A stretch of 64,000 nt of DNA from Candidatus Harrisonbacteria bacterium (GCA_016867415.1 VGJO01000001.1:7823-71822); one strand, 5' to 3'. Numbered from the stretch's first letter, positions 3,063 to 60,624 are shown. A program made the numbers and translations. Notes: a model not told the origin generated them from the sequence alone.

Positions 3063-3184
3063 AGCACAGGATTTTTGAGAAGATTTTGGATTTTCTTTCT
3101 GAGTACGCATCGGAGCATACTAGTGCTCAAGTATGTGAGAAGCGAACGGAAGAAAAAAATTAAAAATCTTCCAAAATACCATCG
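3063..3184 (+). repeat. Dispersed hairpin element family 1, copy A
   Basis: GCACAGGATTTTT...GAGTACGCATCGGAGCATAC-loop-GTATGTGAGAAGCGAACGGAAG...AAAATACC; aligns by eye with copies at 12974, 23651, 52963. Confidence 0.85.
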
Positions 3185-3538
3185 TTAGCGTACACCAAAA
3201 AAACTTCGGATAACGGGGATAACTGAATAGGAAAGCAATGCCACTATTATACCAATAATCGCGTACGTTAAAATTTTTCTAGCGTCTTCCGTCTTTCCAT
3301 TTCCCAACCAGTTAGCGCTCACGAAGAGAAATGCGGAATAGAGAATCGCTCCCACTGCGATTGTGAGCACAAACACGCGAAAAAAAGCAATGATTCGATC
3401 AATAAGTGAAAGAAATGCTCTCTCATCTTGCACCACCACTTGCCCGCTACTATTAAACTGCCCTGGAAGCTGAGCCATCGCTAACATAGGAAGCACCAAA
3501 TAGGCGCTCGTCATCAAACTAAAAAAAAACTTTTTCAT
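3185..3538 (-). CDS. TrbC/VirB2-like pilin
   Basis: Signal peptide (..AMAQ) and two hydrophobic helices separated by a short basic loop (EDARKILTYAIIGIIVALLSY), typical of VirB2-like pilins. Confidence 0.75.
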   Translation of the reverse strand: MKKFFFSLMTSAYLVLPMLAMAQLPGQFNSSGQVVVQDERAFLSLIDRIIAFFRVFVLTIAVGAILYSAFLFVSANWLGNGKTEDARKILTYAIIGIIVALLSYSVIPVIRSFFGVR

Positions 3539-3646
3539 TAATATAGCAATGAAAGTCTACGACCTTTATTATTATTCTCATTATACCAAATCCTCCTCAC
3601 CTCGTTGTGGAAAAAATATTATTTATAAAAAAATCACATGTCGTCA

Positions 3647-3842
3647 CGCGAAGTAATTTTGAACTTCTTTTTGTTCTTCTTTCCTAAAAAGGTACTAAGA
3701 GCTACCTGCGGGAAGTTTATGAGAAACATCCTTAGAAAAAAAGATGGGCCTCCACTACTTCTAGATTAAAAAAAGAAGAAAGAGAAGCATCAGCTAAGAT
3801 GGGGTCGGCTACACAAGCAAAAGAAGGCAAAAGTATGAGCAC
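3647..3842 (+). repeat. Degenerate/expanded family 1 element
   Basis: Ends CGCGAAGTAATTTTG... and ...AAAAGTATGAGCAC match the ends of copy B (12974); interior diverged. Confidence 0.55.
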
Positions 3843-3858
3843 GTCGCAAACAGAGAAA

Positions 3859-4209
3859 TTAACCACACTTCACCTGATACCACGGATATGGACTCCCTCC
3901 AGTAATAGCAAGGAAAAAAGAAGAGATAATCACCCACGATGCCATCACAATAATAAGGCCAATTAGAGCTGTCTTAATAATATTTTTACCAGCTTTTATA
4001 CGCTCTTGTGATTCACCACTAGTGAGAATGACAAGACCGCCCCACATCATAAACATCCCGGCGAGAATAGGTGCCAACGTGGCAAAAAGTTTTATAAAGT
4101 TATCGAGAAGTTTCAGGAGATCACAAAGAGTGCAAAAAGCTTCTCCATTTGGCAAAGGCCGGCCAGAACACTTAGGAAGAAGAGGTCCGACAAATTGAAA
4201 AAGAAACAT
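3859..4209 (-). CDS. TrbC/VirB2-like pilin with N-terminal cysteines
   Basis: C..CTLCDL motif followed by 'WGGLVILTSGESQERIKAGKNIIKTALIGLIIVMASWVII', the pattern of CPR pilin-family proteins. Confidence 0.78.
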   Translation of the reverse strand: MFLFQFVGPLLPKCSGRPLPNGEAFCTLCDLLKLLDNFIKLFATLAPILAGMFMMWGGLVILTSGESQERIKAGKNIIKTALIGLIIVMASWVIISSFFLAITGGSPYPWYQVKCG

Positions 4210-4261
4210 TATATTTATAGTATATCACAAAAAAAATTGTAAAATGATATACTAAAGAAAG

Positions 4262-4846
4262 ATGAAATACTTTTCTTTTTTAGCTTTTTTTCTTTTTTTT
4301 ATTTCTTTCCAAGCAGTTTTTGCTGAATCATATTTTCCAGGAGGAAGTTCTGGTAGAAGACCTTTCCAAGAAGTTCGGAATCCAAAGTATGACACTTCGA
4401 AAAATAGATTTGTACCAGTACCACAGCAAGATCCTTGGTATATTCAGGTTCCTAACATCCCTACCACCCAGCAATCAGGGCCAATGGGACCGGGAGTATT
4501 TACTCCAGGAGCAGGGATGAATACTCCAGGAGCAGGGATAAATACTCCAGGAGCAGGGATGCAAGATATCAATCTCTCGCAATCATTCCCATATTCATTC
4601 TCTAATATCGGAGAGCTCGCAACTAAATTAGCGAATTTTCTCTTCCTCCTCGCCGCCCCCCTTGTGATTATTACTATTCTCTATGGTTCGTTTGTCTTAA
4701 TTTTCGCAGGAGCAATTCCTGCAAACATTAGTAAAGGATGGAGCATAATCCGTTACGCCGTTTTAGGCTACGTCATCATTGTTGTCGCTCGCCTCATCGT
4801 CTCCTTCATCACCACCTTCTTCGCCACTGCAAACTATCTAAGCTAA
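4262..4846 (+). CDS. Pilin-like (VirB2-type C-terminus) protein with repeat-containing N-terminal extension
   Basis: Signal peptide, TPGAG(M/I)N repeats, C-terminal 'AGAIPANISKGWSIIRYAVLGYVIIVVA'. Confidence 0.7.
   Translation: MKYFSFLAFFLFFISFQAVFAESYFPGGSSGRRPFQEVRNPKYDTSKNRFVPVPQQDPWYIQVPNIPTTQQSGPMGPGVFTPGAGMNTPGAGINTPGAGMQDINLSQSFPYSFSNIGELATKLANFLFLLAAPLVIITILYGSFVLIFAGAIPANISKGWSIIRYAVLGYVIIVVARLIVSFITTFFATANYLS
4501..4561 (+). repeat. 21-bp in-frame tandem repeat x~3
   Basis: TACTCCAGGAGCAGGGAT(G/A)AA units encoding TPGAGMN/TPGAGIN. Confidence 0.9.
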
Positions 4847-4878
4847 GCAATCTAAAGCAATATAGATTAAATAAAAAT

Positions 4879-6555: not shown

Positions 6556-6729
6556 GAAATTATCACCTTACCCCTGAATGACCTTCTGGAGAAAAGAAGT
6601 ATGGCTTTTTTATGGTGTTGTTTTATCCTCTTGTTCCCCAAAAACAACACCATGAAAAATTCTTTTTGAGGACTGAATGAAAGTCCGCAGGGACTTTCAT
6701 GTGTCATGAAGGGGTAAGGTGAGAATTTC
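6556..6729. repeat. Dispersed ~173-bp element family 2, copy 1 (MITE-like)
   Basis: Terminal IR GAAATTATCACCTTACCCCT/AGGGGTAAGGTGAGAATTTC (19/20) and two internal hairpins; homologous to 16201-16373 and 28729-28901. Confidence 0.85.
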
Positions 6730-9253: not shown

Positions 9254-9376
9254 AAAAATTAGGTAGCCCCATTATTACAAAAAAAACCTCTTTAGGCAAT
9301 CTACTCAAACCAATGCTTTATTAATCAAAAAAAGAATAAGTGGCCCAAACAGTAATAGTTTTTGAGAGTTTTCGGT

Positions 9377-9406
9377 TGTCATTCCGGCCTCCGAGCCGGA
9401 ATCCAG
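9377..9406 (+). repeat. REP/RPE-like short palindrome (family 3)
   Basis: TGTCATTCCGGCCTCCGAGCCGGAATCCAG, identical to 17880-17909. Confidence 0.85.
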
Positions 9407-9463
9407 TTCATTTCCTTTAAACTTCTTCTTAATATTATAAATCGAAAAAAGACCAAAAATTAT

Positions 9464-12772: not shown

Positions 12773-12973
12773 TTCTTTTTTTCTTCAGTAGATCTGTTTC
12801 ACCCAGGAATTTTTCCCTTCAGAAAAATTCCTGCCCCGTGACCGTTTTTTCAAGCTATTAATTTTCCCTTTTAAAACCTGAAAGAATTTTCATTAAAAAA
12901 AAATTATAAAATAATATCTGCATTACCTCCCTCATTTAAAAACATAAAAAAGGGGAAATAATGCGCGTACACA

Positions 12974-13096
12974 TGCGAAGTAATTTTGGAGGACTTTTCG
13001 ATTTTATTTCTGAGCAGCGAACGGAACATACTGGAGCCAAGTCTGTGAGCACGCAACGCAAGAAAAAAATCGAAAAGAGCCCAAAAGTACGAGCAC
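12974..13096 (+). repeat. Dispersed hairpin element family 1, copy B
   Basis: CTTTTCGATTTTATTTCT...GAGCAGCGAACGGAACATAC-loop-GTCTGTGAGCACGCAACGC...AGAAAAAAATCGAAAAG. Confidence 0.85.
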
Positions 13097-13103
13097 TAAA
13101 TAT

Positions 13104-16200: not shown

Positions 16201-16373
16201 GAAACTTTTTATTTCCCTTGAATGGCTTTCTGGAGGAGAAAAGCATGGTTTTTTCATGATATTATTTTTTTCTTCTTATTCCCCAAAAATAACATCGTGA
16301 AAAATTTTCTCTGAAGCCTAAATAAAAAATTACTGGAGTTTTTATGGGTCATGAAGGGGAAAGAAAAAGTTTC
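16201..16373. repeat. Dispersed ~173-bp element family 2, copy 2
   Basis: Terminal IR GAAACTTTTTATTTCCCTT/AAGGGGAAAGAAAAAGTTTC; same internal layout as copy 1. Confidence 0.85.
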
Positions 16374-16411
16374 TAAAAAAATTTAAATAATATGATAAAA
16401 TAATTACTACT

Positions 16412-17878: not shown

Positions 17879-17879
17879 T

Positions 17880-17909
17880 TGTCATTCCGGCCTCCGAGCC
17901 GGAATCCAG
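17880..17909 (+). repeat. REP/RPE-like short palindrome (family 3)
   Basis: TGTCATTCCGGCCTCCGAGCCGGAATCCAG. Confidence 0.85.
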
Positions 17910-17940
17910 TACATTTTCTATCAAATTAATTTTAAAAAGA

Positions 17941-17970
17941 AAAAAGCGGCGACCTTACAGCCACCGCTTG
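17941..17970 (-). terminator. Intrinsic terminator of the 18003-18716 gene
   Basis: Minus strand AAGCGGTGGCT-GTA-AGGTCGCCGCTTTTT with G-U pairs and U tract. Confidence 0.75.
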
Positions 17971-18002
17971 TTTGAGATTTTTCCGTCTTCCCGTGATGCG
18001 CC

Positions 18003-18716
18003 TCAGGTCGCGACGGTATCATTAGCTACAGCAGTTGCCGAAGCCACTTCTTCCGTCTCAGCGTCCTGAGCTTCTTTCGCCGCCTTGAGAATATCCCGCC
18101 GTGTGCAAGGCGAAATATGCTCCTTCTTGCGCAATCCTCGCACCTGGGAGACTCGGAGACCAGCGATTTTGGCGATCATCGTGTCCGGCAACTTGCCCAA
18201 GAACGGCCGAATCTTCTTTTCGATATCGACCACCTCCGGAAATCCGTAGATAATCCCAATCGAAGTAAACGCATTCCGAAGCGTCCCGTGATGCACGATG
18301 GTGCTGTGATAGAGCGCCGGATCCTCCCGCCTGAAAGCGTCAGGATCCAACACCTCTTTCCCACGCAATCGAGCGAGCGACTGGCTAGCGCAAAAAAAGG
18401 GCACTTCCATCGCCGACACCAACTCTTGCCACACAAGCTTCGGCGGAAAGCGATGGCCACATCTCGTACAAGTAGTGTTAAGATCGTTCGGATCATCCAC
18501 AAATCCTTTGAGGATCTCGGCCGGCGTCAAAGACCGATTGCATTTGGGACAAAGCGCCTGCGGCCGAAACTTCTCATGACCATGGATAGCGCCCACCAAT
18601 TCCAATCGCATACTGAGCATCTGCGCCTGGCAGAGCATCCGCTGTGCCTGCGTCATCCGCTGTGCCTGCGTCATCCGCTGTTCCATTGAATGGTGCTGAG
18701 AAAAAGTAAGCATCAT
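18003..18716 (-). CDS. Orphan zinc-binding protein with C-terminal HTH-like motif
   Basis: 237 aa; Gln-rich N-terminal repeats (QRMTQA), CPKC...CTRC zinc ligands, 'LGKLPDTMIAKIAGLRVSQVRGLRKKEHI' HTH-like segment; own promoter, GAAGGA RBS and terminator. Confidence 0.85.
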   Translation of the reverse strand: MMLTFSQHHSMEQRMTQAQRMTQAQRMLCQAQMLSMRLELVGAIHGHEKFRPQALCPKCNRSLTPAEILKGFVDDPNDLNTTCTRCGHRFPPKLVWQELVSAMEVPFFCASQSLARLRGKEVLDPDAFRREDPALYHSTIVHHGTLRNAFTSIGIIYGFPEVVDIEKKIRPFLGKLPDTMIAKIAGLRVSQVRGLRKKEHISPCTRRDILKAAKEAQDAETEEVASATAVANDTVAT

Positions 18717-18788
18717 AATTCAAATTCCTTCACAAAGAAGAAGAGGGGAGAAACCAACTTTTCAAAGTCCTTTCAGACTAACACACCT

Positions 18789-18817
18789 GTTATAGCACAC
18801 TAAAAATCCAATGTCAA
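18789..18817 (-). promoter_or_regulatory. sigma70 promoter for the zinc-binding protein
   Basis: Minus strand TTGACA-N17-TATAAC with extended TG; followed by boxA-like GGACTTTGAAAA (18770-18759). Confidence 0.8.
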
Positions 18818-18860
18818 TATTTTGTCAACTTGACAAAAATAGATAAAAACCAATAGGGTA

Positions 18861-18888
18861 TTGACATAGGCTGTGGATATGCTATAAT
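18861..18888 (+). promoter_or_regulatory. sigma70 promoter for the large ncRNA candidate
   Basis: TTGACA-N16-TATAAT with extended TG; both hexamers perfect. Confidence 0.85.
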
Positions 18889-18894
18889 AGTTTT

Positions 18895-19499
18895 AGAACT
18901 TAGAAATAAGACGCTTCTTACCTAATCCTAAAAAGCTTTCGCAGATCTACTCTTGAGATCTTTTTAGGATTAGGTAAGTTAGCGTAAAGACGAATGCTTG
19001 CTTTCCTGAATCTTTTCTTGAACCTACTTGTCACTGGTATTAGGCAACCGTTCTGGATAAGTCGATGAACTTATTCTCCCTGAGCGCGTCTCAGGCAAGA
19101 GAATACCCGTTCGCGGGGTACGGTGAAGACCATCTGTTCGGTTATAAGCTCCGCCAGGACCGACTGGTTAAGCGACAAGGCTTGAGGAAACTCGTACGCT
19201 ACTTGAATATTCTTTTTGTAAGTGGAACCGGTTTCACTTCAAAAAGGAGAGGTCAAGCAAAGCGCGGGTACAGCCGTTCTCCCCAGCAGGGTACAGAACG
19301 TACAAAGAAGTGGGAATCCTCAGAGAAAAATGCAGATCCCTCTGGATCTGCTAATACTCAATCCACTTTCAAAGGTGTGAAAGCACCATCCCAAAAGCTC
19401 ATCACGTGAGAGCATGGGAAAAGGGCACTGCCAAGCGTCGTCTTCTAGCGAAAGCTAGGCGAGCCGGTTTTGTGGGTAATCCCCAAAACCGGTTTTTTT
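18895..19499 (+). ncRNA. Candidate large (~600 nt) structured non-coding RNA
   Basis: Promoter and terminator bracket more than 12 helices with GNRA/UUCG loops and a long-range closing helix (18987-19000/19432-19444); the only ORF is internal and implausible. Confidence 0.75.
19463..19499 (+). terminator. Intrinsic terminator of the ncRNA candidate
   Basis: GCCGGTTTTGTGGG-TAAT-CCCCAAAACCGGT-TTTTTT. Confidence 0.8.
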
Positions 19500-19563
19500 A
19501 TACTTAATTTTGTACAAAAATTATTTCAAGAAAAATATTCAAGTTCAACGTTGCGTTACGCCA

Positions 19564-19682
19564 AGCGCAGGATTTTTTCTTCAGGGCTAGGAGAAAGCGA
19601 GGCTTGCGAGGAAGCATACGTAAGCTGTATGTTGACGAGCAAACGGAGCTTTCGACAACGCCCTGGAGGAAAAAGACAAGCT
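19564..19682 (+). repeat. Dispersed hairpin element family 1 (subtype b), copy E
   Basis: AGCGCAGGATTTTTTCTTCAGGGC...GAGGAAGCATAC-loop-GTATGTTGACGAGC...GCCCTGGAGGAAAAAGACAAGC. Confidence 0.8.
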
Positions 19683-19684
19683 CA

Positions 19685-21700
19685 TCAATCTTTCTTATCA
19701 GCAGCCTTTCGGGGATCGGTCCACGTCGCATTGTCACATTGCGGATATCTACTACATCCAAAAAATAACCTCCTCCCTTTCTTCGTAAATCTCTTCATCA
19801 TCTCTCCCTCCCCGCACTTATCACACTTCACTCCCGTACTCCTATTATCTGCCTCCGGCTCAATCACCGCTCCCGATTCAGTTTTTACTTCTCCAGTAAT
19901 CTTCTTCGCATTCTTGCACTCCGGAAATCCTGAGCACGCTAAAAATTTTCCATACCGCCCCGCACGCACCACCATTTTTTTCCCGCACTTATCACAAATC
20001 TCATTTGTCTCAATTGGCTCCGGCCGCTCTGCCCGCGCTACCGACTCATACTTTTCCGCTAGATTCTTCGCAAACGGATCATAAAAATCTTTCAGGAGTT
20101 TTTTCCAAGCAATCTTTTTCTCCGCGACGTCATCCAAACCTTCCTCCATCCCTGCTGTAAAACCGACATCCACTATAGTCGGGAAGTGTTCTTCAAGAAG
20201 CGTTGTTACTTTTTCCCCGATCTCCGTCGGGTGAAATCGCCGCTCAATCTTCTCCACGTAGCCTCGCGCCTCAATCGTGCTGATCGTCGGCGCATAGGTC
20301 GACGGTCGCCCCACCCCATTCTCTTCCAAAGCTTTAATAAGAGTCGCTTCACTGTAGCGCGCCGCCGGCTCGGTGAAGTGTTCCTCATACTTCACTTCCT
20401 TTACATCCATCTCCTCCTTTTCTTCCAAAGTTGGCAAAATTACATCCTCTGTCTTTGATGGGTATACCTTAAGAAATCCCGGGAAAAGCATCTGGCTCCC
20501 AGTCGTCTTCAAGATGTGCGGCCCCGCCTCAAAAAGAATCGTCATCTGGTTAAATCGGGCCGGCGGCATCTGTGACGCCAAAAACCTCTTACTAATAAGG
20601 TCATACACCTTCCGCATCGAAGGCTCAAGCGCCTCAATATCCGCCGCGCTCCGATTGAGATGCGTCGGCCGGATCGCCTCGTGCGCTTCCTGCGCCCCTT
20701 TTGACTTCGTCGCGAATCGCCGCGGCGCGTCAGCCGCATACTCCGCTCCCAACTCTTTTTCTAAATATTCCTTCGCCATTGAAAGCGCTTCCGAGGCGAT
20801 ATTTACCGAGTCCGTTCTCATGTAAGTGATCCAACCATTTTCATACAACTTCTGCGCCGCAAACATTGTCTTCTTTGCCGCGTAGCCGAGCTTATTCGCC
20901 GCTGTCTGCGTAAGCGTGCTCGTAGTAAAAGGCGGTGACGGATGCCGTTTCACCTCTTTTTGGGTAATTTCTTTGACTCGTACCGTCGCCACCTTGATAT
21001 CGTCTACAATTTTCTTAGCCGCCGCTTCATCCTGCAGCTCCAGTCGATCCACCTGCTTTCCATACGCTGAAAAAAGCTCCGCAAGGCACGTTGCGGCCGG
21101 ATCTGTCTTCTTCGTAAGCTCCGCCACCACCGAAAAATATCTCGTCGGCACAAACGCCCGAATCTCCCGCTCCCGATCCACAATCAGCCGAAGAGTTACC
21201 GACTGCACCCGTCCCGCCGAGAGTCCTCGCGCCACCTTCTGCCATAAAAACGGCGAGAGTTTATATCCCACGATTCTATCCAAAATTCTTCGGGCTTGCT
21301 GAGCATCTACAAGGCTCATATCGATCCGCCGTGGCGACTTGAGCGCCTCCTGGATCGCTCGCTCCGTGATCTCATGAAAGACAATTCTCTCCGTCTTCTC
21401 TGCATCCAAGCCTAAAGCCGCGGCAAGATGCCAGGCAATCGCTTCTCCCTCTCGGTCTTCGTCAGTGGCAAGCACTACCGCGTCCGCTTTACCCGCCTCT
21501 TTTTTGAGCTTCTTCACCGTCTCTCGCGCTTTAGCTGGAATCATGTACTTCGGCTCAAAATCATTCTCAAGATCCACCCCGATTTTTGACTTTGGTAAAT
21601 CCCGAATGTGGCCAAAAGACGACAAGAGTTCATACCCCTTACCTAAAAATTTTCCGATCGTCTTTGCCTTTGTCGGACTCTCTACAATAATAAGTTTCAT
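19685..21700 (-). CDS. topA: DNA topoisomerase I
   Basis: IVESPTKAKTI, ATDEDREGEAIAWH, SAGRVQS, ITYMRTDS, two C-terminal zinc ribbons. Confidence 0.98.
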   Translation of the reverse strand: MKLIIVESPTKAKTIGKFLGKGYELLSSFGHIRDLPKSKIGVDLENDFEPKYMIPAKARETVKKLKKEAGKADAVVLATDEDREGEAIAWHLAAALGLDAEKTERIVFHEITERAIQEALKSPRRIDMSLVDAQQARRILDRIVGYKLSPFLWQKVARGLSAGRVQSVTLRLIVDREREIRAFVPTRYFSVVAELTKKTDPAATCLAELFSAYGKQVDRLELQDEAAAKKIVDDIKVATVRVKEITQKEVKRHPSPPFTTSTLTQTAANKLGYAAKKTMFAAQKLYENGWITYMRTDSVNIASEALSMAKEYLEKELGAEYAADAPRRFATKSKGAQEAHEAIRPTHLNRSAADIEALEPSMRKVYDLISKRFLASQMPPARFNQMTILFEAGPHILKTTGSQMLFPGFLKVYPSKTEDVILPTLEEKEEMDVKEVKYEEHFTEPAARYSEATLIKALEENGVGRPSTYAPTISTIEARGYVEKIERRFHPTEIGEKVTTLLEEHFPTIVDVGFTAGMEEGLDDVAEKKIAWKKLLKDFYDPFAKNLAEKYESVARAERPEPIETNEICDKCGKKMVVRAGRYGKFLACSGFPECKNAKKITGEVKTESGAVIEPEADNRSTGVKCDKCGEGEMMKRFTKKGRRLFFGCSRYPQCDNATWTDPRKAADKKD

Positions 21701-23482: not shown

Positions 23483-23650
23483 TACAAACAAATAATCCTT
23501 CATTTACGTTTTTGATAAAGCAATAGCATCCCCAAGCATAAAAGCCCTAGGATTTTTTTCTTAGTACGAGGAGAAAATACAGTAAAGAAAAATATCCTTT
23601 GCATAAAAGCGAAGTGATGCCAAAATCCCTCTAAATATAACAATGCGTAA

Positions 23651-23771
23651 AGCGCCGGATTTTTGGAGGGCATTTCGTCTTTTCTTCTGAGTATGGGACG
23701 GAGCATACTGTGGAAAGTATGTGAGTACCTAACGGAAGAAAAAAGATAAAATGCACCCCAAAATACCAGCG
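23651..23771 (+). repeat. Dispersed hairpin element family 1, copy C
   Basis: AGCGCCGGATTTTTGG..GCATTTCGTCTTTTCTTCTGAGTATGGGACGGAGCATAC-loop-GTATGTGAGTACCTAACGGAAGAAAAAAGATAAAATGC..CCAAAATACCAGCG. Confidence 0.85.
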
Positions 23772-23781
23772 AAAACCAGAG

Positions 23782-24009: not shown

Positions 24010-24206
24010 TATTCCTTATTCCTCTTTTTTCTGATATCTAATAAGACTTGTCCGCTCTCCCGGCATTCCTTTTCTTTGTCCTAAAGGGGAAAAAATACTC
24101 GGCTTCTTATAGCTATTAGCGAAGATGGGTCACTTTTATGTACACAAAAAACAATGTATCGCGACAACGCAGAAAAAAATCGCAAAATCAGTCAAACAAG
24201 CTAGCT

Positions 24207-25160: not shown

Positions 25161-25280
25161 ATATGTAAGGAATGTATCAATAGCTCAGCCATTCTAGCAC
25201 ATCCTAAACCCCTATTGCAAAGCCTAAAAAATAGCAGATTTTCTTCTAGATTTTGCCAATATAAACAGGCGTCTTCAGTT

Positions 25281-25405
25281 CCGAAAAATAATTTTTGATA
25301 AAGTTTCGTGATTCTTTTCGAGCAGCGAGCCGAAAATACATAGCGAACGGTATGCGAGCATACAGCACAGAAAAAACCGTGAAATTTGCCAAAAATACGA
25401 GCGCC
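25281..25405 (+). repeat. Dispersed hairpin element family 1, copy G (diverged)
   Basis: ATTTTTG.AAAGTTTCGTG...GAGCAGCGAGCCG..ATAC-loop-GTATGCGAGCA...GTGAAATTTGCCAAAAATACGAGCGCC. Confidence 0.7.
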
Positions 25406-28728: not shown

Positions 28729-28901
28729 GAACCCTCACCCCTTCCATGAGTGACCTTTTGGAGAAAAGAAGCATAGTTTCTTGTAGTGATGTATTACCTG
28801 GATTCATCTCCTCAATACATAGCCATAAAAAATTATTTTCAAAAATTGCATGAAAGTTCGCTGGAACTTTCATGCATCTTGAAGGAAAGAGGTGAAGATT
28901 C
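28729..28901. repeat. Dispersed ~173-bp element family 2, copy 3
   Basis: TGACCTT(C/T)TGGAGAAAAGAAG core and ATGAAAGTTC-GCTG-GAACTTTCAT hairpin shared with copy 1; terminal IR. Confidence 0.85.
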
Positions 28902-28949
28902 TAAAAAACACCCTAATCCCCATATCCATATATGCTAAAATACTAACTA

Positions 28950-33147: not shown

Positions 33148-33260
33148 AAACCTAACTCGAACAATAACCCCAGCCAATTCACCGACAAAGGCCTCGGCAT
33201 CTAACCATGAAGGCATTATAAGATCATTAAACGTTTTTCTTTTTTGCATTCTTAAATGTA

Positions 33261-33290
33261 CTGGATTCCGGCTCGGTGGCCGGAATGACA
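33261..33290 (-). repeat. REP/RPE-like short palindrome (family 3, inverted)
   Basis: Reverse complement TGTCATTCCGGCCACCGAGCCGGAATCCAG. Confidence 0.85.
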
Positions 33291-33399
33291 ATCCCTTCAA
33301 AACACTATATATGCCTTGTCTTGCCATAGCGTACTCACGAAGGAGGAGAGGATTTTACGATTTTCTTTATAAATAAATTAAAAATATAGCCCGTCGCCA

Positions 33400-33578
33400 A
33401 GCGCAGGATTTTTGAGTCGAGTTTACGATTTATTTCTGAGGACAAGCCCGGGAGCACTACTAAGAAAAAGGTATGTCGAAGGTATGGAGTACTCTCCGTA
33501 CCGGAGATCTCGAGTGCTCTCGAGGTGAAGGACTTACTGGAAGAAAAAATCGCAAAATTGGCCAAAAAGACAAGCGCC
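33400..33578 (+). repeat. Dispersed hairpin element family 1, copy F (with internal insertion)
   Basis: AGCGCAGGATTTTTG...CGATTTATTTCTGAG...GAAGAAAAAATCGC...CAAAAAGACAAGCGCC; extra ~55 nt with small palindromes. Confidence 0.8.
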
Positions 33579-43780: not shown

Positions 43781-44890
43781 ATGAAAATTATTGTTTTAAA
43801 AAATAATCTTAAAGAAGCCTTATCGGTTATTGAACATGGCGTAGGAGATAATAATGCTCTCCCTATTCTTAAAAACGTTCTTATCCAAACAGAAAATGAA
43901 AAAATAGTCCTCCGGACCACTAATCTCGAATTAGCCATTAAAAAAACTCTTTCCGGAAAAATAATTGAACCAGGAGCTATTACCGTCCCTCTTTCTGTTT
44001 TATATTCAATTATTAGCAATCTTTCTGATGAAAAAGTTTCTCTTGATACGAAAGATACCACTCTCCTTATTAGTACAGAAAAATATCAAGCTAAAATTCA
44101 AGGAGTAAAAGATGATGAATTTCCGGTAATTCCCAAAATAGAGACAGAAAGTGTTCTTATTATCGCTTCTCAGGTTCTTAAGAAAGCTATTAGTAAGGTA
44201 TTTTATGCCGCTGAACTTTCCGAGATTCGCCCTGAGATTGGTGGTGTTTTATTTGATTTTCTTACCTCGAATCTTAAATTAGTTGCTACTGATAGTTTTC
44301 GCCTCGCGGAAATGATTGTAAAAAAAGAATTATTTTCTTTTTCCGGTACTTCGGGCTTTAAAGCTATTATCCCTTTAAAAACCGTTCAAGAAATTATCCG
44401 AATTTTTCCCGAAGATGAGATGATAAAAATTTCTTTTGATCCAACTCAGGTATTTCTTCAATCTTCTTCTATTGAACTTATTTCTCGTCTCTTAGAAGGA
44501 GAATATCCAGATTATGAGCAAATAATTCCCAAGACATTTATAACAGAAGTTATTCTTAAAAAAGAAGATTTAGGAAATGCGGTGAAGGTAGTAAGTACGT
44601 TTAGTGGTAAGAATAATGATGTAAATCTTTCATATAGTGATGCTGGTGATATGTCTTTATACTCCTTAAATCAGGTAATTGGTGAAAATAAGTATTCTTT
44701 TTCCGTTTCTGGAAAAGGAGAATCATTTGAAAATATTGCTTATAATTGGCGATTTATTCAAGATGGCCTACGTGCTCTTGAAGGCCCCACTATTTTTTTT
44801 GGTGTGAATGGTTCTGATCGTCCTTCGCTTATAAAAAGCACTGAAAGTGATATTTTTTTTTCATATATCGTAATGCCAATAAAAAAATAA
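43781..44890 (+). CDS. dnaN: DNA polymerase III beta clamp
   Basis: LPILKNVL, TNLE, VATDSFRLAE, SRLLEGEYPDYEQIIP, YIVMPI. Confidence 0.97.
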   Translation: MKIIVLKNNLKEALSVIEHGVGDNNALPILKNVLIQTENEKIVLRTTNLELAIKKTLSGKIIEPGAITVPLSVLYSIISNLSDEKVSLDTKDTTLLISTEKYQAKIQGVKDDEFPVIPKIETESVLIIASQVLKKAISKVFYAAELSEIRPEIGGVLFDFLTSNLKLVATDSFRLAEMIVKKELFSFSGTSGFKAIIPLKTVQEIIRIFPEDEMIKISFDPTQVFLQSSSIELISRLLEGEYPDYEQIIPKTFITEVILKKEDLGNAVKVVSTFSGKNNDVNLSYSDAGDMSLYSLNQVIGENKYSFSVSGKGESFENIAYNWRFIQDGLRALEGPTIFFGVNGSDRPSLIKSTESDIFFSYIVMPIKK

Positions 44891-48725: not shown

Positions 48726-48769
48726 ATCTCTTAAAAAGTATCCTACTTTAAATTATAAATCCGCTTCTT

Positions 48770-48900
48770 AATCTGTTTCTTCTTTATTTCGAGCGAGCCG
48801 CTTTTTCTGAAGCGAAGTACTACCAAATAAAAAAAGGTAACATAAACTGAAGAAAAAGATGGCGCAGCCGAAAGAAGTAGAAATAGGTAAGAATAGGATC
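48770..48900 (+). repeat. Diverged family 1-like hairpin element
   Basis: TCTGTTTCTTCTTT...TTTTTCT..TAC-loop-GTA..AGAAAAAG...AAAGAAGTAGAAATAG imperfect long hairpin. Confidence 0.45.
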
Positions 48901-48962
48901 TTGTAATTCAAAGTATAATAATGAGGCCAAAAAGAAAAGCGTAATAAGGTATAATAGTGTAA

Positions 48963-50907: not shown

Positions 50908-51072
50908 TAGGATTTTTCCTTAGGGCTAGGGGAAAGAGAATAATAAGAGGAGGTATACTGGGCTAATGTATTTACTGCAAGTAGTGAGTGCTCTCTCTGG
51001 TGTAGGCCCCAAGTACTCGAGGTATAAGACGAGAAATCAGAGCCTCTGATAATGCCCTAAAGAAAAAAATAG
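50908..51072 (+). repeat. Family 1 subtype b element with internal insertion
   Basis: AGGATTTTTCCTTAGGGCTAGGGGAAAG..GAGGAGGTATAC...GACGAGAAATCAGAGC...GCCCTAAAGAAAAAAAT parallels copy E. Confidence 0.7.
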
Positions 51073-51310: not shown

Positions 51311-51479
51311 TAATTCCGCCTTTTTTTAAAAAAAACTATAAAAACTGGAAAATGAGTTTTTCCTTCATTTCTTCCTTAATTTTCCTAAAAACATTACACT
51401 CTAAAAAAGCCGAAGCGGAGAAAACGTGATTTTTTGTAATCAAAATATTTTTCGTTCTACGAGCACTAAAAAGGAAAAC

Positions 51480-52900: not shown

Positions 52901-52962
52901 TTCGCTACATTTTTAGACAAGTTTAAATTAGAGGAGGTATTTAAAAATCGTTGCATCACACA

Positions 52963-53083
52963 TGCGCAGGATTTTTGAGAAGAGTTTGGATTTTCTTTAC
53001 GAGTACCGAACGGAGCATGCTCTAAAAGTCTGTGAGTACGGAACACAGTAAAAAAATTCAAAATATTCCAAAAATACAAGCTT
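52963..53083 (+). repeat. Dispersed hairpin element family 1, copy D
   Basis: TGCGCAGGATTTTTGAGAAG..TTTGGATTTTCTTTACGAGTACCGAACGGAGCATGC-loop-GTCTGTGAGTACGGAAC..GTAAAAAAATTCAAA..CAAAAATACAAGC. Confidence 0.85.
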
Positions 53084-53089
53084 AACCCC

Positions 53090-53962
53090 ATGAAAAAGAC
53101 TCTTATTTTAATAGATACTTTCGGCCTAGTCTTTCGCTTCTTCTTCGCCCTGCCGCCCTTAAGTACCAAAGATGGCCGCGTCGTAAATGTCGTCTTCGGC
53201 CTCGCCAATCTCCTCCTTAAAATTCGCAAAGAACAGCACCCTGATTATTTAGCCGCCGCCTTTGATCTCCCTGCCCCTACTTTCCGGGATAAGCTCTATG
53301 ATCAGTATAAGATTCACCGTCCCACTCCGCCGAATGATCTGATTTCTCAAATTCCGCTCGTACGCAAACTTCTCGAGATTTTCCGTATCCCCATCCTTTC
53401 TGCTGAGGGTTTTGAAGCTGATGATGTTTTAGGGAGTGTTACTGAAAAATTTCTCTCCGAGCCGAATCTTATTCAGATTATTTTCTCTGGCGACAAAGAT
53501 CTTCTTCAGCTTATTAAGGACGATAAAGTGCTGGTTAAATTTTTAAAAAAAGGTATTTCGGACAGCGATTTATATAATGAATCTTCCGTAGTCAGTCACT
53601 TAGGTGTCGCCCCGAAAGCCATCCCTGATCTTAAAGGTCTTCTAGGGGACTCTTCCGATAATCTTCCTGGTGTAAAAGGAATAGGGGATAAGACCGCCGT
53701 CCCACTCATCCTTAAATATGGATCCTTAGAAAAAGTATACGAAAATCTCTGGGAAATTCCGGAAAAAATCAGTAAGAAACTCGAAGTTGGTAAAGAATCC
53801 GCTTTTATTACTAAAGAACTTGCTACTATAAGAAAAGATGTCCCACTCTCTTTATCTTTAGAGAATCTTAAAAATTATCCACTTGATAAGGCAGCTCTCG
53901 GTACCTTTTTTCATGAACTCGATTTCATTAGTCTTGAAAATAAGTTGTCTTTTACAGATTAA
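53090..53962 (+). CDS. 5'-3' exonuclease (PolA N-terminal domain as a separate gene)
   Basis: LID..FRFFFALP, GFEADDVLG, SGDKDLLQL, GDSSDNLPGVKGIGDKTA. Confidence 0.93.
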   Translation: MKKTLILIDTFGLVFRFFFALPPLSTKDGRVVNVVFGLANLLLKIRKEQHPDYLAAAFDLPAPTFRDKLYDQYKIHRPTPPNDLISQIPLVRKLLEIFRIPILSAEGFEADDVLGSVTEKFLSEPNLIQIIFSGDKDLLQLIKDDKVLVKFLKKGISDSDLYNESSVVSHLGVAPKAIPDLKGLLGDSSDNLPGVKGIGDKTAVPLILKYGSLEKVYENLWEIPEKISKKLEVGKESAFITKELATIRKDVPLSLSLENLKNYPLDKAALGTFFHELDFISLENKLSFTD

Positions 53963-53979
53963 ATTCTATATTCAAATAA

Positions 53980-55278
53980 ATGTTTGAAGAAGAAAAACAA
54001 AAAATAGCTAATTGGCTTTTAAACCCCGATCATCCAGAGTCTCTTTCTTTAGAAGAAGCGGAGGAAAGGCTTCGCACTCTTTCTCTGTGGAAAGTGTACG
54101 AAGAAATTGAAGTGCCTTTATTCCCGATTTTAAAAGACATGTCAGCGACCGGCATTCGTCTCGATCATAGTCGTCTTGCTTCGCTCGCTAAAGAATTAAA
54201 AGATGAGATTGCTAAAGAAACCAAGGAGATTTTTGCCTTAGCTGGTGGGGAATTTAATCTTAATTCTCCCAAGCAGGTTGCAGATATCCTTTTTACTAAT
54301 CTCGGCTTAAAGCCGTTGAAAAAAAACAGTAAATCCGGCACCTCCTCCACCGATTATGAAACTTTAGTGAGTCTTAAGGCTGCCCACCCCATCGTCGAGC
54401 ATCTCCTTAAATCCCGAGAGCTTATAAAAATAGAAGGCACGTACGTAAGTAAACTCCTTTCTGCTCCCGAGCGCATTCATGCGGTTTTTAATCAGATGGG
54501 CGCCGCTACTGGCCGCTTCAGTTCCCACGACCCTAACATGCAAAATATTCCTCCAGTAGTGAAGCAGGTGTTTATTCCTAGCGATGGCTTTACTTTTGTC
54601 TCCCTCGATTATTCTCAAATCGAACTTCGCTTAATCGCTAGTCTTTCAGGGGATGAGACGATGATTGCTGCTTTCAAGAAAGGCATAGATATTCATCGCC
54701 TTACCGCCTCTAAGATATTCAAAATTCCCCTGCAAGAAGTAGATGATAGAATGCGCGGGATGGCGAAGACTTTAAACTTTGGCATTATCTATGGCATGGG
54801 CAGCGTTGCTTTTAGTAAACAAGCTGGCGTCACCCGCAAGGAAGCCGAAGCATTCATTAAAGAATATTTCAAAAATTTCAGCGCCATTAAAAACTATGAA
54901 GAAGATATTGTGATGCAAGCCTTGCAAGTCGGTTATACCGAGAATATTCATGGTCGTAAACGTTTCCTTCCTGACCTGGCTTCAAGAAATTCTTTCTTGG
55001 CAAATAATGCTCGCCGAGCCGCTATTAATATGCCGGTCCAAAGTCTTGGTGCTGATGTCATCAAGCTCGCCATGATTAAGTTTTGGGAAAAGTACCATGC
55101 CAACAGCTCAGTAAAACTTCTTCTTTCTATTCACGATGAACTTCTTTTTGAAATAAAAGACAGCAAGATAGATTTAGTGATTCCTGATCTAATAAAAATT
55201 ATGGAAAGCGTCCTCTCTCTTTCTGTTCCTCTAAAAGTAGATGTAGCTAAAGGAAAACGCTGGTCTGATCTCTCGTAA
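53980..55278 (+). CDS. polA: Family A DNA polymerase domain (split PolA)
   Basis: ATGRFSSHDPNMQNIP, DYSQIELR, AKTLNFGIIYG, AINMPVQ, IHDELL. Confidence 0.93.
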   Translation: MFEEEKQKIANWLLNPDHPESLSLEEAEERLRTLSLWKVYEEIEVPLFPILKDMSATGIRLDHSRLASLAKELKDEIAKETKEIFALAGGEFNLNSPKQVADILFTNLGLKPLKKNSKSGTSSTDYETLVSLKAAHPIVEHLLKSRELIKIEGTYVSKLLSAPERIHAVFNQMGAATGRFSSHDPNMQNIPPVVKQVFIPSDGFTFVSLDYSQIELRLIASLSGDETMIAAFKKGIDIHRLTASKIFKIPLQEVDDRMRGMAKTLNFGIIYGMGSVAFSKQAGVTRKEAEAFIKEYFKNFSAIKNYEEDIVMQALQVGYTENIHGRKRFLPDLASRNSFLANNARRAAINMPVQSLGADVIKLAMIKFWEKYHANSSVKLLLSIHDELLFEIKDSKIDLVIPDLIKIMESVLSLSVPLKVDVAKGKRWSDLS

Positions 55279-57373: not shown

Positions 57374-57376
57374 TGA

Positions 57377-57404
57377 TCATTCCGGACTCCGAGCCGGAAT
57401 CTAG
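57377..57404 (+). repeat. REP/RPE-like short palindrome (family 3)
   Basis: TCATTCCGGACTCCGAGCCGGAATCTAG. Confidence 0.75.
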
Positions 57405-57416
57405 TTCTTACTTAAT

Positions 57417-58184
57417 ATGATTTTCCTTCTCTACGGCACCGACTCTTATAAAAAAGAGGAAAACCTCCAAGTCATAGTCTCGGAGTTTAAGCGCCGCCAC
57501 GGCAACCCCCTCACCATCAACTTCTTTGACGACAAAAATACCGATCTCGAGTCCGAGCTTCTCTCTCATGCCCGGAGCCAATCCCTCTTCAGCGCTCCGC
57601 GGGCTCTTATCCTTCGCGAGCCCTTTGCCCTCAAAAAAGACGCGCTTCTTATTCCTATATTCAAGCAAGCGATTGATGACCCTAAGCTCATCCTGATTCT
57701 AGTAAGCGAAGCCGCTCCTGATAAAAAATTATCCTTCCTCTTAGAAAAGCCAGTGGTGGTAAAAAGCTACGAGATCCCCGAAGGCAAAGCCTGGCTTGAT
57801 TATGTTCTCCGCGAGATGAAAAAAAGAGGAGTAGAGCCAAAGAAGGGGATAGAGAGGACTCTTGCCACCTATTTTGTGGGCGACCCTTGGGGTCTCGTGA
57901 CCGAGCTTGATAAGCTCTCCCTTGGCGCCTCTCTCGGTAATTATGAGCTTGATACCGCCGGCCTTTTTAACCAAATATTCAGCCTCCGCCCCAGTGCCCG
58001 CTCTCCTCGCAGCCGCCTCGCCACCCTTTACAAGCTATTAAAAAAAGAAGACGCCGCCAAAGTCTTCAATCTCCTCGCCTATCAAAAAGGTGGTCTCCCA
58101 AAAAGCTTTTTCGCCCACGAAGACGTCCTAATCAAGCTCGGTAAGACCGATCACTCCCTCTCCCTCCTTAAAGCCATTTTATAG
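57417..58184 (+). CDS. DNA polymerase III delta subunit-like (HolA)
   Basis: MIFLLYGTDSY, SLFS, ELDKL, DVLIKLG; lies convergent with rpsT, a common holA context. Confidence 0.75.
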   Translation: MIFLLYGTDSYKKEENLQVIVSEFKRRHGNPLTINFFDDKNTDLESELLSHARSQSLFSAPRALILREPFALKKDALLIPIFKQAIDDPKLILILVSEAAPDKKLSFLLEKPVVVKSYEIPEGKAWLDYVLREMKKRGVEPKKGIERTLATYFVGDPWGLVTELDKLSLGASLGNYELDTAGLFNQIFSLRPSARSPRSRLATLYKLLKKEDAAKVFNLLAYQKGGLPKSFFAHEDVLIKLGKTDHSLSLLKAIL

Positions 58185-58188
58185 AAAC

Positions 58189-58214
58189 AAAAAACCCGCA
58201 CACAAGGTGCGGGG
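58189..58214 (-). terminator. Intrinsic terminator of rpsT
   Basis: Minus strand CCCGCAC-CTTGT-GTGCGGG-TTTTT. Confidence 0.75.
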
Positions 58215-58236
58215 AAAAACGAAAGTCTGAACTCTT

Positions 58237-58500
58237 TTACTTAATCTTCGAAATAGCCTTAGTCAGACGAGATTTCAATCTTGCCGCCTTATTCTTCTTA
58301 ATAAGATTCGTCTTCGCCGCCTTATCGAGCTTCTTATAGACTATTGGCAAGTTCTTTAAAGCCTCATCTTTCTTAGAAGAAGCTGTACTCTTGCGCACTT
58401 CTCGGATTAAGTCTTTCAAGACCTTCCGCTGGCTGTCATTATGCTCTCTCCGGGTCTTATTTTTCCGGATATTCTTTTTCGCTGTTCGTGTATTTGGCAT
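58237..58500 (-). CDS. rpsT: 30S ribosomal protein S20
   Basis: MPNTRTAKK, LDKAAK, IKKNKAARLKSRL. Confidence 0.96.
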   Translation of the reverse strand: MPNTRTAKKNIRKNKTRREHNDSQRKVLKDLIREVRKSTASSKKDEALKNLPIVYKKLDKAAKTNLIKKNKAARLKSRLTKAISKIK

Positions 58501-58584
58501 TTGTCCAATATAATAAACATCTTTCTCTAAAAAATCAAGCTTCCTTTAATTTCTAATTATTTTCCAGTAAAGTTAGTCATAATA

Positions 58585-59172
58585 ATGATCTATAGTCTTT
58601 CTGGTAAAATAACAAAAATAACCGATTCCTACGCCGTTATAAATGTCTCCGGTGTCGGCTATAAAGTTTTCATTCCCAAGCGCACCGCCGACTTTTTACG
58701 CTCCTCCGCCCTTTCCGAAACCACGCTCTATACCTATCTTGCCGTAAAAGATGATGCCCTTGACCTCTATGGCTTTCTCGAAGACTATGAACTCGCTTTT
58801 TTTGAAAAGCTCATCTCGGTAAATGGCGTTGGTCCCAAAAGCGCGCAGGGGATAATGTCTATCTCGAGCGTCGATGAGCTTGTTGGCGCGATTGTGAGCG
58901 AGAGAGTTGAGCTTCTCACCCGCGCCTCCGGCATCGGAAAGAAGACCGCCGAGCGCATTATTCTCGAGCTTCGCGGTCGTCTCGAGCATCTCGGAGAGCA
59001 AGCCTCCGTCACCTCTCTTGAAAACGATCTTGAGCTCGAAGAAGTGCTTTCTGGCCTAGGTTACAGCCGCTTTGATATAAAGAAACTCCTTAGTGAAAAT
59101 AAAGAAAAAATTACCGGCGACACCCTCCAAATCCGCTTAAAGTCCGCCTTAAAGCTTCTTAAAAAACAATGA
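58585..59172 (+). CDS. ruvA: Holliday junction DNA-binding protein RuvA
   Basis: GVGY, LYGF, ISVNGVGPKSA, GIGKKTAERIILEL. Confidence 0.96.
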   Translation: MIYSLSGKITKITDSYAVINVSGVGYKVFIPKRTADFLRSSALSETTLYTYLAVKDDALDLYGFLEDYELAFFEKLISVNGVGPKSAQGIMSISSVDELVGAIVSERVELLTRASGIGKKTAERIILELRGRLEHLGEQASVTSLENDLELEEVLSGLGYSRFDIKKLLSENKEKITGDTLQIRLKSALKLLKKQ

Positions 59173-60371
59173 TCCTCATAAACTTTTTGCGCAAAATCGC
59201 TCGCAAGACCGGCCTCATTAGTCTCTATCATTACGCGTGGGCGCTTGGCTCCGCCATCCTCTATGGCTTCCCTGGCAAGGACCTCGTCGTGATCGGTGTC
59301 ACGGGTACGAAAGGCAAGACTACTACCATCTCCCTTCTTAAGCATATCTTTGAATATGCCGGCCACCCCTCCGCCATGGTTACTTCCTCCGATATCTGCA
59401 TAGAGGATCAGTGTGAAAAAAATCTTCTGGGTAATTCCATGCCCGGCCGATTTTTTCTCCAAAAATTTCTCGCTCGCGCCAAGCGCGCCGGCGTAGAATA
59501 TGTCTTCGTCGAAGTCACTTCCGAAGGTGTCCGTTTCTTTCGTAATTATTTCCTCCACTTTTCTGGAGCGGTCTTTCTAAATCTTACTAAAGAACACATT
59601 GAGTCTCATGGTTCTTTTGAAAAATATAAAGACGCCAAACTCTCTTTTTTCCGCCGGGCCAAAAAAGAAAATTCCTCTACCAAATTTTTCATAAACAAAA
59701 ATGACTATTTTTCCTCCAAGTTTCTTCTCGCCGCGGGAGGCCAAGCTTTTATTTTTGAAAAAAGCGATCTAGAAAGCCAGCTCTTTGGTGAGCATAATAA
59801 GTGTAATATCGGCGCGGCTACGAGTGTCGCTCACGCCTTTGATATTAATGAATCCCTTATCGAAGAAGCCACCGCAAGTTTTCCTGGAGTCTCTGGCCGG
59901 ATGGATCTTGTCTTTAATAAAGATTTCAAGGTCTTTGTAGATTATGCCCACACCCCAGATTCTCTCTGGGCCGCTTTAGTAGCTGGAGAGGAACAGGCGA
60001 AAAAAAATATTCTAGTAGTAATCGGTGCCGCCGGTGGTGGTCGGGATCGTTGGAAGCGAAAAGAAATTGGTAAAGTAGCCGCTACGTTTGCTAATACTGT
60101 CGTGATCACGAATGAAGATCCTTTTGATGAAGATCCTCGTGCCATCATGGAAGAAATTAATGCCGGTGCCCTTGAGGTCATCGAGAAAAAAGACCACGTC
60201 CGAATAATCGAAGACCGTAAAGAGGCAATTCTCTTTGCCCTTAAAGAAGCGAAAAAAGGTGACGTTGTCCTCGTGACTGGTAAAGGCAGCGAACCCTGGA
60301 TCCGGGTAAAAAATGGTAAAAAAATCCCCTGGAGCGACCATCAAATTATCCACGACTTTTTCAAAAAATAG
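59169..60371 (+). CDS. murE: MurE-like Mur ligase
   Basis: GVTGTKGKTT, EVTSEG, NLTKEH, GRMD, VDYAHTPD, GGGRDRWKR, EDP, GKGSE; lacks the N-terminal domain. Confidence 0.85.
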   Translation: MILINFLRKIARKTGLISLYHYAWALGSAILYGFPGKDLVVIGVTGTKGKTTTISLLKHIFEYAGHPSAMVTSSDICIEDQCEKNLLGNSMPGRFFLQKFLARAKRAGVEYVFVEVTSEGVRFFRNYFLHFSGAVFLNLTKEHIESHGSFEKYKDAKLSFFRRAKKENSSTKFFINKNDYFSSKFLLAAGGQAFIFEKSDLESQLFGEHNKCNIGAATSVAHAFDINESLIEEATASFPGVSGRMDLVFNKDFKVFVDYAHTPDSLWAALVAGEEQAKKNILVVIGAAGGGRDRWKRKEIGKVAATFANTVVITNEDPFDEDPRAIMEEINAGALEVIEKKDHVRIIEDRKEAILFALKEAKKGDVVLVTGKGSEPWIRVKNGKKIPWSDHQIIHDFFKK

Positions 60372-60544
60372 TTTTTGTTTCACTGAAAATTTTATTTAAT
60401 AAGGATAATCGTTTCAGCTCCGCGCATGATTTTTTGTCCCTATGATGAGTCTCCGCTAGGAATAGTAGGCTTTAAAAGAAAAAATCAAAGCTTTATTTAA
60501 GAATGAATAAAAAAAGATAAAGTGAACGAAAATAAGTAAGTATT

Positions 60545-60624
60545 AGCAGGAGGTATACATAATCAGTATGTTGACGAGCAAACGAAAGCTTAGACATGCG
60601 TCAGAGGAAAAAAAGACAAGCGCC
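60545..60624 (+). repeat. Right half of a family 1 subtype b element
   Basis: GGAGGTATAC-loop-GTATGTTGACGAGCAAACG..GAGGAAAAAAAGACAAGCGCC closely matches 19610-19682. Confidence 0.75.

Follow-up and report, generated by a model that had tools for sequence, protein, structure and literature searches.

Hairpin repeats locked to one strand of a Candidatus Harrisonbacteria chromosome with a one-signed base skew

Candidatus Harrisonbacteria bacterium carries a family of dispersed hairpin repeats, hereafter family 1, almost every copy of which lies on the C-rich strand of the chromosome, irrespective of the replication origin and terminus. The repeats were noticed in a 64,000-nucleotide stretch of DNA, hereafter the window (C1:7823-71822), from a genome of 631,534 bases in 12 contigs that is 99.85% complete (hereafter G000). 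Across the whole genome, 65 of the 66 loci found with a covariance model lie on the C-rich strand of their contig. An earlier note on the window had raised the possibility of a polar signal running through the genome; the single orientation held, but the polarity ignores origin and terminus and goes instead with a chromosome-wide skew.

Strand lock and base skew in the genome and its relatives

An iterated hidden Markov model built on four window copies gave 86 matching pieces in G000 (E<=0.05), and the reversed genome, searched with the identical model as a control for chance, gave a best E of 0.002. The covariance model R1, built from 45 full family 1 copies, gave 73 matches (E<=1e-4) with 150 of 1013 candidates scored; seven of these are reverse-strand echoes of the same hairpins, leaving the 66 loci. 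The five main-family copies in the window (R1 E 3e-25 to 9e-16) were also part of the training alignment. When family 1 is merged with its sister families, 131 of 132 elements lie on the C-rich strand, and the sole full family 1 copy on the opposite strand is at C2:55035-55157 (L014:15653-15775). Several other intergenic families are locked too (F2/F3, 26 of 26; F4, 19 of 19; F5, 16 of 16; F6, 4 of 4), whereas a short REP-like family of the TGTC type, similar to F5, is not (9 copies against 3).

Contig-end overlaps and synteny order four contigs into a scaffold of about 500 kb (C2-C3-C7-C1), with the inferred terminus at the convergence of gene directions, at about C2:30 kb. Mapped against the replichores, the merged elements occupy the C-rich strand in 68 of 69 cases on the left and in 36 of 36 on the right, the side where the usual rule predicts the opposite strand; in G000 the elements are not replichore-dependent. 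GC skew is negative or near zero throughout the scaffold, about -0.22 on the left and -0.08 on the right. At dnaA the skew steps from about -0.21 to -0.08 without a change of sign, and the hairpins do not flip; at the inferred terminus a step is again present, and neither hairpin orientation nor the sign of the skew flips. These non-flips lie within single contigs, C1 at dnaA and C2 at the gene-direction convergence.

To decompose the skew, four-fold sites were split by gene strand and replichore, giving a global and a replichore term (log2). The global offset in G000 is C +1.50, G -1.73, A -1.11 and T +0.39, and the replichore term is C -0.48 and G +0.36. The replichore amplitude for C and G is as large as in relatives, whereas the global offset, 3-5 times larger, differs from it in spectrum. 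The global offset is thus stacked on the replichore term, and the normal replication print is retained. Seven-letter words with G runs also still flip between replichores (AGGGGAG, right +19/-6, left +6/-56); these words resemble FtsK-orienting (KOPS-like) motifs. The word CTCCGCC, tried as a polar signal, has no excess beyond base composition and was rejected. An element-free island of glycan genes (C1:127922-147361) has a weaker skew, consistent with recent arrival.

R1 gave no match in 16 genomes of the same family and one weak match in 150 genomes of the order. The sister-family covariance model R2, for which at most 24 candidates were scored per genome, matched 37 of 151 genomes of the order, 12 of them with six or more matches. 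Two relatives with one match each, G009 and G002, have a skew that flips at dnaA and a gene order collinear with that of G000, which rules out a misassembly or inversion at dnaA. Their four-fold sites give global/replichore terms for C of +0.04/-0.41 and -0.08/-0.29, respectively. G078, from another family, repeats the pattern of G000: all 22 sister hairpin matches (E<=0.001), from coverage of about 714 of 716 kb, are on the C-rich strand, the skew is one-signed in each contig with no flip at dnaA, and overlaps and synteny allow the contigs to be read as a one-signed circle. Its global/replichore terms are C +0.67/-0.18 and G -0.70/+0.14. Where a gene sits in one replichore in G000 and in the other in G078, its skew in each genome is that of the replichore it now occupies.

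Hairpins that flip are found elsewhere. In G042, which has at least 24 copies, two R2 matches flank dnaA on opposite strands, and G070 has a normal skew flip, with both clear matches (2 of 2) on the local C-rich strand in the 100 kb sampled. The tip motif occurs at 15 loci in GTDB genomes, 13 labelled Alistipes, one Bacteroidetes and one Archangiaceae. The Alistipes genome G159 has 35 matches (E<=0.001) over 361 kb, most of them on the C-rich strand; on its contig C1 the hairpins and the skew both flip at one point, about 120 kb, which may be the origin. Viral contigs gave no match to the hairpin pattern. Tandem hairpin copies were seen in G159, G160 and G078.

Fold, ends and copying of the hairpins

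Family 1 is a single long hairpin of about 125 nt, with a mean pairwise identity of 67% over 45 copies. Mutual information recovers nested Watson-Crick pairs, such as 41:100, 53:88, 51:90, 33:107 and 46:94. At 40 named pairs, 90.6% of cells are paired compared with 76.4 +/- 0.6% after shuffling, two-sided changes number 250 compared with 80 +/- 8, and controls with slid partners are at most 52% paired; as the alignment tested is also the one from which the pairs were picked, and its copies are kin, this covariation is strong without being a formal test. The compensatory changes and selection on structure proposed from the window copies are thereby borne out in the 45-copy alignment. What is fixed in the hairpin is its irregularities: three 3x2 loops of G-N-A opposite G-A, two A.A mismatches, bulged A21 and C37, and one G.T pair conserved in 39 of 45 copies.

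These irregularities differ between the strands. On the + strand, G.A mismatches number 115 and T.C mismatches 29, and this strand has the more stable fold in 40 of 45 copies with DNA parameters and in 37 of 45 with RNA parameters. The corresponding strand is likewise the better folder in 19 of 21 G078 copies and 27 of 31 Alistipes copies, whereas sporadic G.T and A.C, the conserved pair excluded, stand at only 96 against 78. Because G.A far exceeds T.C and the + strand folds better, we infer that the folded, recognised strand is the C-rich one, in support of the single-stranded folded form suggested earlier. The sarcin-ricin (loop E) motif suggested with it does not stand. The middle base of AGYA pairs and covaries with its partner as a Watson-Crick pair (columns 46:94, n=45: C-G 15, T-A 14, G-C 7, A-T 2), and AGTA itself occurs in 15 of 45 copies, 10 of them with a literal GAA opposite in a different register; the internal loops are therefore not loop E.

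Relative to gene boundaries, taken from our own gene predictions and tRNAs, the 3' end lies at most 15 nt from the next gene in 58 of 97 elements, whichever direction that gene points, compared with 2 of 97 for the 5' end. The closeness of right ends to gene boundaries seen in the window thus extends to the larger set, as does the independence of orientation from flanking gene direction (46 -/-, 31 +/+, 11 convergent and 9 divergent). There is no fixed word in the 3' flank or 5' leader, and element ends are fuzzy by a few bases. No target duplication was detected, either by score (4.21 compared with 4.07 +/- 0.15 shuffled, n=39) or by eye in recent duplicates.

Near-identical copies of 184-233 nt (98.7-100% identity) lie in unrelated flanks, and the sequences support reading them as signs of recent copying. 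Three of these pairs share 23-31 nt of 5' leader, and two pairs have a common core with a different foot module, giving hybrid ends. In Alistipes metagenome-assembled genomes (MAGs), copies that are 95-99% identical sit at different gene junctions. A gene of 124-127 amino acids (aa) lies directly 5' of the hairpin in two MAGs and is absent in others (L044 and L047 compared with L049).

One contig of run X8 matches window positions 17881-18883 and resumes its alignment at 19687; 712 different letters stand in between. The replacement of 18884-19686 ends at the 3' end of the copy at 19562, and the 712-letter stretch may be a diverged version of the segment that it replaces. Positions 18862-19560 hold a TTGACA-17-TATAAT promoter that is perfect; behind it come about 640 nt of structured DNA, with a doubtful open reading frame (ORF) and an end that resembles a terminator. 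In run X8 the gene at 18003-18716 shows unusual polymorphism; the single-nucleotide polymorphisms of this run are few and unpolarised, and were not used as evidence.

Table 1. Repeats of the window, with dnaA as a landmark (window coordinates).
Feature	Position	Strand	Context
Family 1 hairpin	3061..3186	+	tRNA-Leu (+) on one side; on the other, a minus-strand gene with its stop about 1 nt beyond the 3' end
Composite, decayed family 1 arm and second module	3644..3840	+	184 nt identical to C2:52926-53109, left foot different
F4 copy	6571..6727	+	Multi-stem, about 160 nt; sister strand-locked family
Family 1 hairpin	12972..13097	+	9 nt before ATG of NYN-domain gene
F4 copy	16215..16374	+	Family model
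F2 sister hairpin	19562..19684	+	Flush with topA stop
Family 1 hairpin	23649..23773	+	About 10 nt before tRNA-Ile
Probable decayed remnant	24050..24205	+	Family resemblance at right end only; matched by no model
Family 1 hairpin	25280..25405	+	Between divergent genes; 17 nt before uvrD-like ATG
F4 copy	28744..28902	+	Family model
Long family 1 variant	33398..33578	+	Longer apical part; 95.6% identical to C1:109030-109211, other foot module at both ends
dnaA	42091..43449	+	dnaN next, at 43781
F6 copy	48757..48903	+	Third, small family; family model
Decayed long F2 variant	50913..51068	+	Family model
Probable truncated remnant	51414..51476	+	Before ruvB; matched by no model
Family 1 hairpin	52961..53084	+	8 nt before ATG of 5'-3' exonuclease (polA N-part)
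Composite F2 copy	60420..60620	+	Model match 60534-60620; left boundary read from sequence

About 12 hairpin copies had been claimed for the window, all facing one way. Every listed copy is indeed on the + strand, and the claim stands for five copies of the main family, one long variant, three of the sister family, one of the third family and one composite; the two remnants do not match a model and look like right ends only. The three F2 copies have ends as in family 1 and a different core. Compared with 200 shuffles, four window copies have a fold stability of z -3.4 to -5.0, and the 19564 copy does not stand out (z -1.4).

F4, a multi-stem repeat of about 160 nt, often has a further conserved hairpin module in front, and short TGTC-type REP-like repeats lie at 9376-9407, 17879-17910, 33260-33291 and 57377-57405. 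Directly 3' of the hairpin at 52961, polA is split over two adjacent ORFs at 53090-55278, the 5'-3' exonuclease and then the polymerase domain. The earlier statement that the window lacks a transposase holds for the 37 window proteins scanned, although a XerC/D-type tyrosine recombinase is present at 1941-2843. Just upstream of this xer-like gene, at about 1875-1915, is a dif-like or operator-like palindrome with four further copies (C1:169059, C1:198660, C2:9867 and C6:23164) and none found in G078 or in contig C1 of G009.

Possible causes of the strand lock

Tentatively, and with somewhat less than even confidence, we propose that the repeats are non-autonomous elements which travel as single-stranded, folded DNA and become joined opposite an exposed strand, and that a one-way process exposes a single strand in G000 and G078. 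The repeats of about 125 nt would spread as single-stranded DNA through an enzyme acting in trans. The G-rich strand would be the exposed template, losing C and receiving incoming copies in the manner of a lagging-strand piece; joining at the lagging strand is the rule in single-strand recombineering. In most relatives the exposed template would be the lagging-strand template, so that hairpins keep to the C-rich strand and change sides at the origin, whereas a G-rich strand exposed everywhere would account for both the C loss and the lock in G000 and G078. The one-way process, of a strand-displacement or rolling-circle type of synthesis, would run on top of two-way replication in these two genomes. 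Cutting or joining at the 3' foot would trim spacer DNA until a gene end stops the trimming, and copies would swap modules by recombination. With appreciably more reserve, we suggest that a second one-way process might run round the whole main chromosome in some small-genome bacteria, independent of origin and terminus, with the G-N-A/G-A hairpins, a widespread class known from this order and from Alistipes, serving it or riding on it as its cis-acting sites.

Several observations weigh against the proposal. If forks from dnaA still run, they should have left some right-replichore copies on the other strand; none of the 36 is reversed, so the model must assume that insertion occurs only during the one-way process. 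The global offset does not look like simple C-to-T damage: C is exchanged for G in G078, and A is also shifted in G000. Nor is the lock produced by copy number, given that the hairpins of copy-rich G042 flip. G097 has three matches left of dnaA on the unexpected strand, a result for hairpins only. G001 has a weak skew non-flip at dnaA (C3, L089-L092) and a weak global offset, both of opposite sign and on a small sample, and no hairpin of the known families was found there. The probable identity of the folded strand rests on mismatch type, and the covariation falls short of a formal test, as described above. No empty site was seen, no close relative having been found and a metagenome scan having given the same population only, and no mobilising enzyme was found among the roughly 180 of 566 predicted G000 proteins that were scanned with Pfam.

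The earlier note had pointed to strand-specific spread by HUH, IS200/IS605 or RAYT enzymes. The selection on structure and the signs of recent copying fit a non-autonomous element, but Y1/RAYT genes (PF01797) number 0 in G000 and 0 in five Alistipes genomes with sister hairpins; such an enzyme could have been lost. Reverse transcriptase genes (PF00078) number 0 in G000 and G159 and are present in G160-G162. No small GIY-YIG protein was found in G000, only UvrC, and the GIY-YIG gene beside a G078 hairpin, also present in G009, resembles an ordinary housekeeping type. No Ssn-like nuclease was found for the TGTC-type REP-like family or F5. Forty-two G000 proteins have a counterpart in G078 and none in 751 kb of DNA from G009, G001 and G002; of these, one stands out, the Rep-like protein described below. 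SMC-ScpAB was rejected as a lock factor: it seemed specific by comparison with G009, but ScpB is in 40 of 41 genomes. Uracil-DNA glycosylase and endonuclease IV fall in a gap of G009 that also lacks rpoB, and are uninformative. Possible strand-processing candidates include a PIF1-like helicase with a helix-turn-helix (HTH) domain and a PD-(D/E)XK nuclease (L007:5202-6854 and L003:5448-6257).

A weak lead to a partner is a 356-aa Rep-like protein (C2:1199-2269), which resembles Phage_CRI/G2P rolling-circle initiators (ESM Atlas, 0.97 to clusters in which 25-31% of members bear PF05144). The protein database holds 396 homologs, some of which carry PF05144; the protein itself has no Pfam or PHROG match, no viral relative and no match in PDB by sequence or Foldseek (RepDE, E 0.23, not significant). 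A genome search with PF05144 gave no match even in G000, and hence is uninformative on Alistipes. The gene lies in a small integrated module at a tRNA gene (L012:1199-4689, on C2), together with genes for an excisionase-like HTH protein and a large serine recombinase; the module has no hairpin inside and a skew opposite to that of its host. Among 151 genomes of the order, 8 carry the Rep-like gene, 5 of the 12 copy-rich genomes compared with 3 of the 139 others, although these kin are not independent, and it is on the strand of the local hairpins in 5 of 5. The gene is not sufficient: G070 and G057 each carry one and flip normally, and G128 has almost no skew.

Hairpins could instead be the cause, serving as nicking, loading or priming sites that start one-way synthesis or unwinding, mutate one strand and seed copies in the same orientation, so that a single polarity would in the end spread over the whole chromosome. 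We consider this unlikely. The offset does rank with copy number over G009, G078 and G000, and G000 has a weak gradient towards the next 3'-side element (logistic slope -0.077 per doubling, bootstrap -0.109 to -0.043). There is no 1-kb mutation halo in G000, however, and the full skew persists over a 19-kb part of C2 in which no element was detected; the G078 offset is unchanged more than 16 kb from any hairpin, the skew is not reversed beside the sole reversed copy, and the hairpins of G042 still flip at dnaA despite its many copies.

Less probable again is that the chromosome now replicates one way from near dnaA, with hairpins and skew following a single fork and the difference between left and right persisting as a relic. 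One-way skew patterns are recorded for 77 of 16,103 large replicons (PMC7858055) and for 31 genomes of a Table S7, none of them from the Candidate Phyla Radiation (PMC7111523). A single fork would be the simplest account of the 36 of 36, and hairpins do track the replichore in G042, G070 and Alistipes. It fits poorly with a replichore amplitude for C and G that is undiminished relative to relatives, under a global offset 3-5 times larger and of another spectrum, with skew steps at both dnaA and the terminus, with the KOPS-like words that still flip and with genes that carry the skew of their present replichore in G000 and G078.

Strand selection during DNA uptake is improbable. A nuclease or binding protein would read the folded hairpin, on incoming DNA, one strand would be cut, and the other would integrate, be single-stranded for a time and lose C. 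Precedent exists in SsnA acting on Neisseria NTS repeats (PMC11893778), G000 has ComEC-type, DprA and pilus ATPase genes, and uptake predicts a sharp hairpin junction with one-sided variable DNA, as in run X8 and Alistipes L044/L047. On the other hand, no small GIY-YIG nuclease was found in G000 and the one in G078 looks ordinary, as described above, uptake of short pieces alone does not couple orientation over 600 kb, and genes 5' of elements are not significantly less conserved (86/130 compared with 96/131, p 0.23), a result that also led us to reject cargo enrichment on that side.

That the repeats act as RNA, as terminators, mRNA stabilisers or small RNAs, is very improbable: the purine-rich internal loops, the flush placement after stop codons and the better + strand fold with RNA parameters (37 of 45) are RNA-like, but orientation is independent of neighbouring genes, Rfam matches at the gathering score are tRNAs only (a single hairpin copy reaches a best E of 0.07), and lock and skew are left unexplained. 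An assembly artefact or a large inversion at the origin can practically be dismissed, as, although the genome is in 12 contigs, the non-flips are inside single contigs, genes on either side of dnaA are collinear with those of G009, G002 and G001, and the pattern recurs in G078.

Relation to known systems and meaning of the lock

The bcr1 repeats of the Bacillus cereus group have a fixed orientation to replication, whereas the hairpins of G000 and G078 ignore the replichores. Similar to family 1, bcr1 is dispersed and non-autonomous, with a length of about 155 bp, compensatory changes and an enzyme that is unidentified (PMC3184786, PMC6199540), but it has a cruciform-like structure of two stem-loops and is flanked by 5-bp TTTAT repeats, as opposed to one long hairpin with no duplication found. 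The attC sites of integrons are also folded single-strand substrates with little sequence conservation, extrahelical bases and a variable tip (PMC5371416), and family 1 shares extrahelical bases of this type on the folded strand, in the form of A21, C37 and the three asymmetric loops. The active attC strand of sedentary arrays maps to the leading-strand template for 25 of 30 (PMC5371416), the same side as the probable folded strand here in ordinary genomes. Unlike attC, the elements do not appear to be arrayed with cassettes and lie genome-wide among housekeeping genes of either direction; the tyrosine recombinase of the window is XerC/D-like by Pfam only, and no search aimed at an integron integrase was made. 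The attC R box has the motif RYYYAAC/GTTRRRY, and the foot of the family 1 consensus has no GTT/AAC core.

Rolling-circle plasmids and filamentous phages have single-strand origins and priming signals in the form of long imperfect hairpins that act on one strand only. Those hairpins are single-copy on small replicons and belong to the displaced strand, which is usually G-rich, whereas the repeats described here number more than 100 on a chromosome and occupy its C-rich strand. IS200/IS605 elements and REP/REPIN-RAYT systems offer single-strand, replication-polarised mobility that is recognised through hairpins and leaves no target duplication (PMC6006769). They differ in that no Y1/RAYT gene and no GTAG-type foot were found here, in stems of 20-65 nt as opposed to a 125-nt hairpin, and in an active strand that is the lagging-strand template, opposite to the strand that probably folds here. 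Ssn nucleases with their NTS/SRM repeats also read oriented hairpins as single-stranded DNA (PMC11893778), and short repeats of the same CGTC/TGTC type occur in G000 (F5, F7), but these repeats are about 30 nt compared with 125 nt, and no Ssn-like gene was found in G000. Unidirectional Pseudoalteromonas chromids share a one-signed GC skew over the whole replicon (PMC7858055), whereas here the replicon is the main, dnaA-bearing chromosome and a replichore step is kept at origin and terminus. The family works like bcr1, attC and IS200/REP-type hairpin substrates, but for each of them it fails one of the defining tests. The pattern of lock and skew was not described in the literature searched, where only general skew surveys were found and most subscription papers were outside coverage.

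In bacteria, strand asymmetry at the scale of the chromosome is taken as the trace that replication leaves on its way from origin to terminus, and assemblies are judged and origins placed by it. Here, in two genomes of different families, a larger asymmetry ignores origin and terminus, the normal trace can still be made out, and over 100 structured repeats follow the larger asymmetry almost without exception. The relatives, with the same gene order and no lock or with hairpins that flip at the origin, serve as natural controls that make the question testable. The hairpin class occurs in 37 of 151 genomes of the order and in Alistipes, and the enzyme that partners it would provide a DNA tool specific for strand and structure. 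If a second one-way process does run on these chromosomes, a fixed strand would be exposed, and synonymous base use would have been reshaped in most genes.

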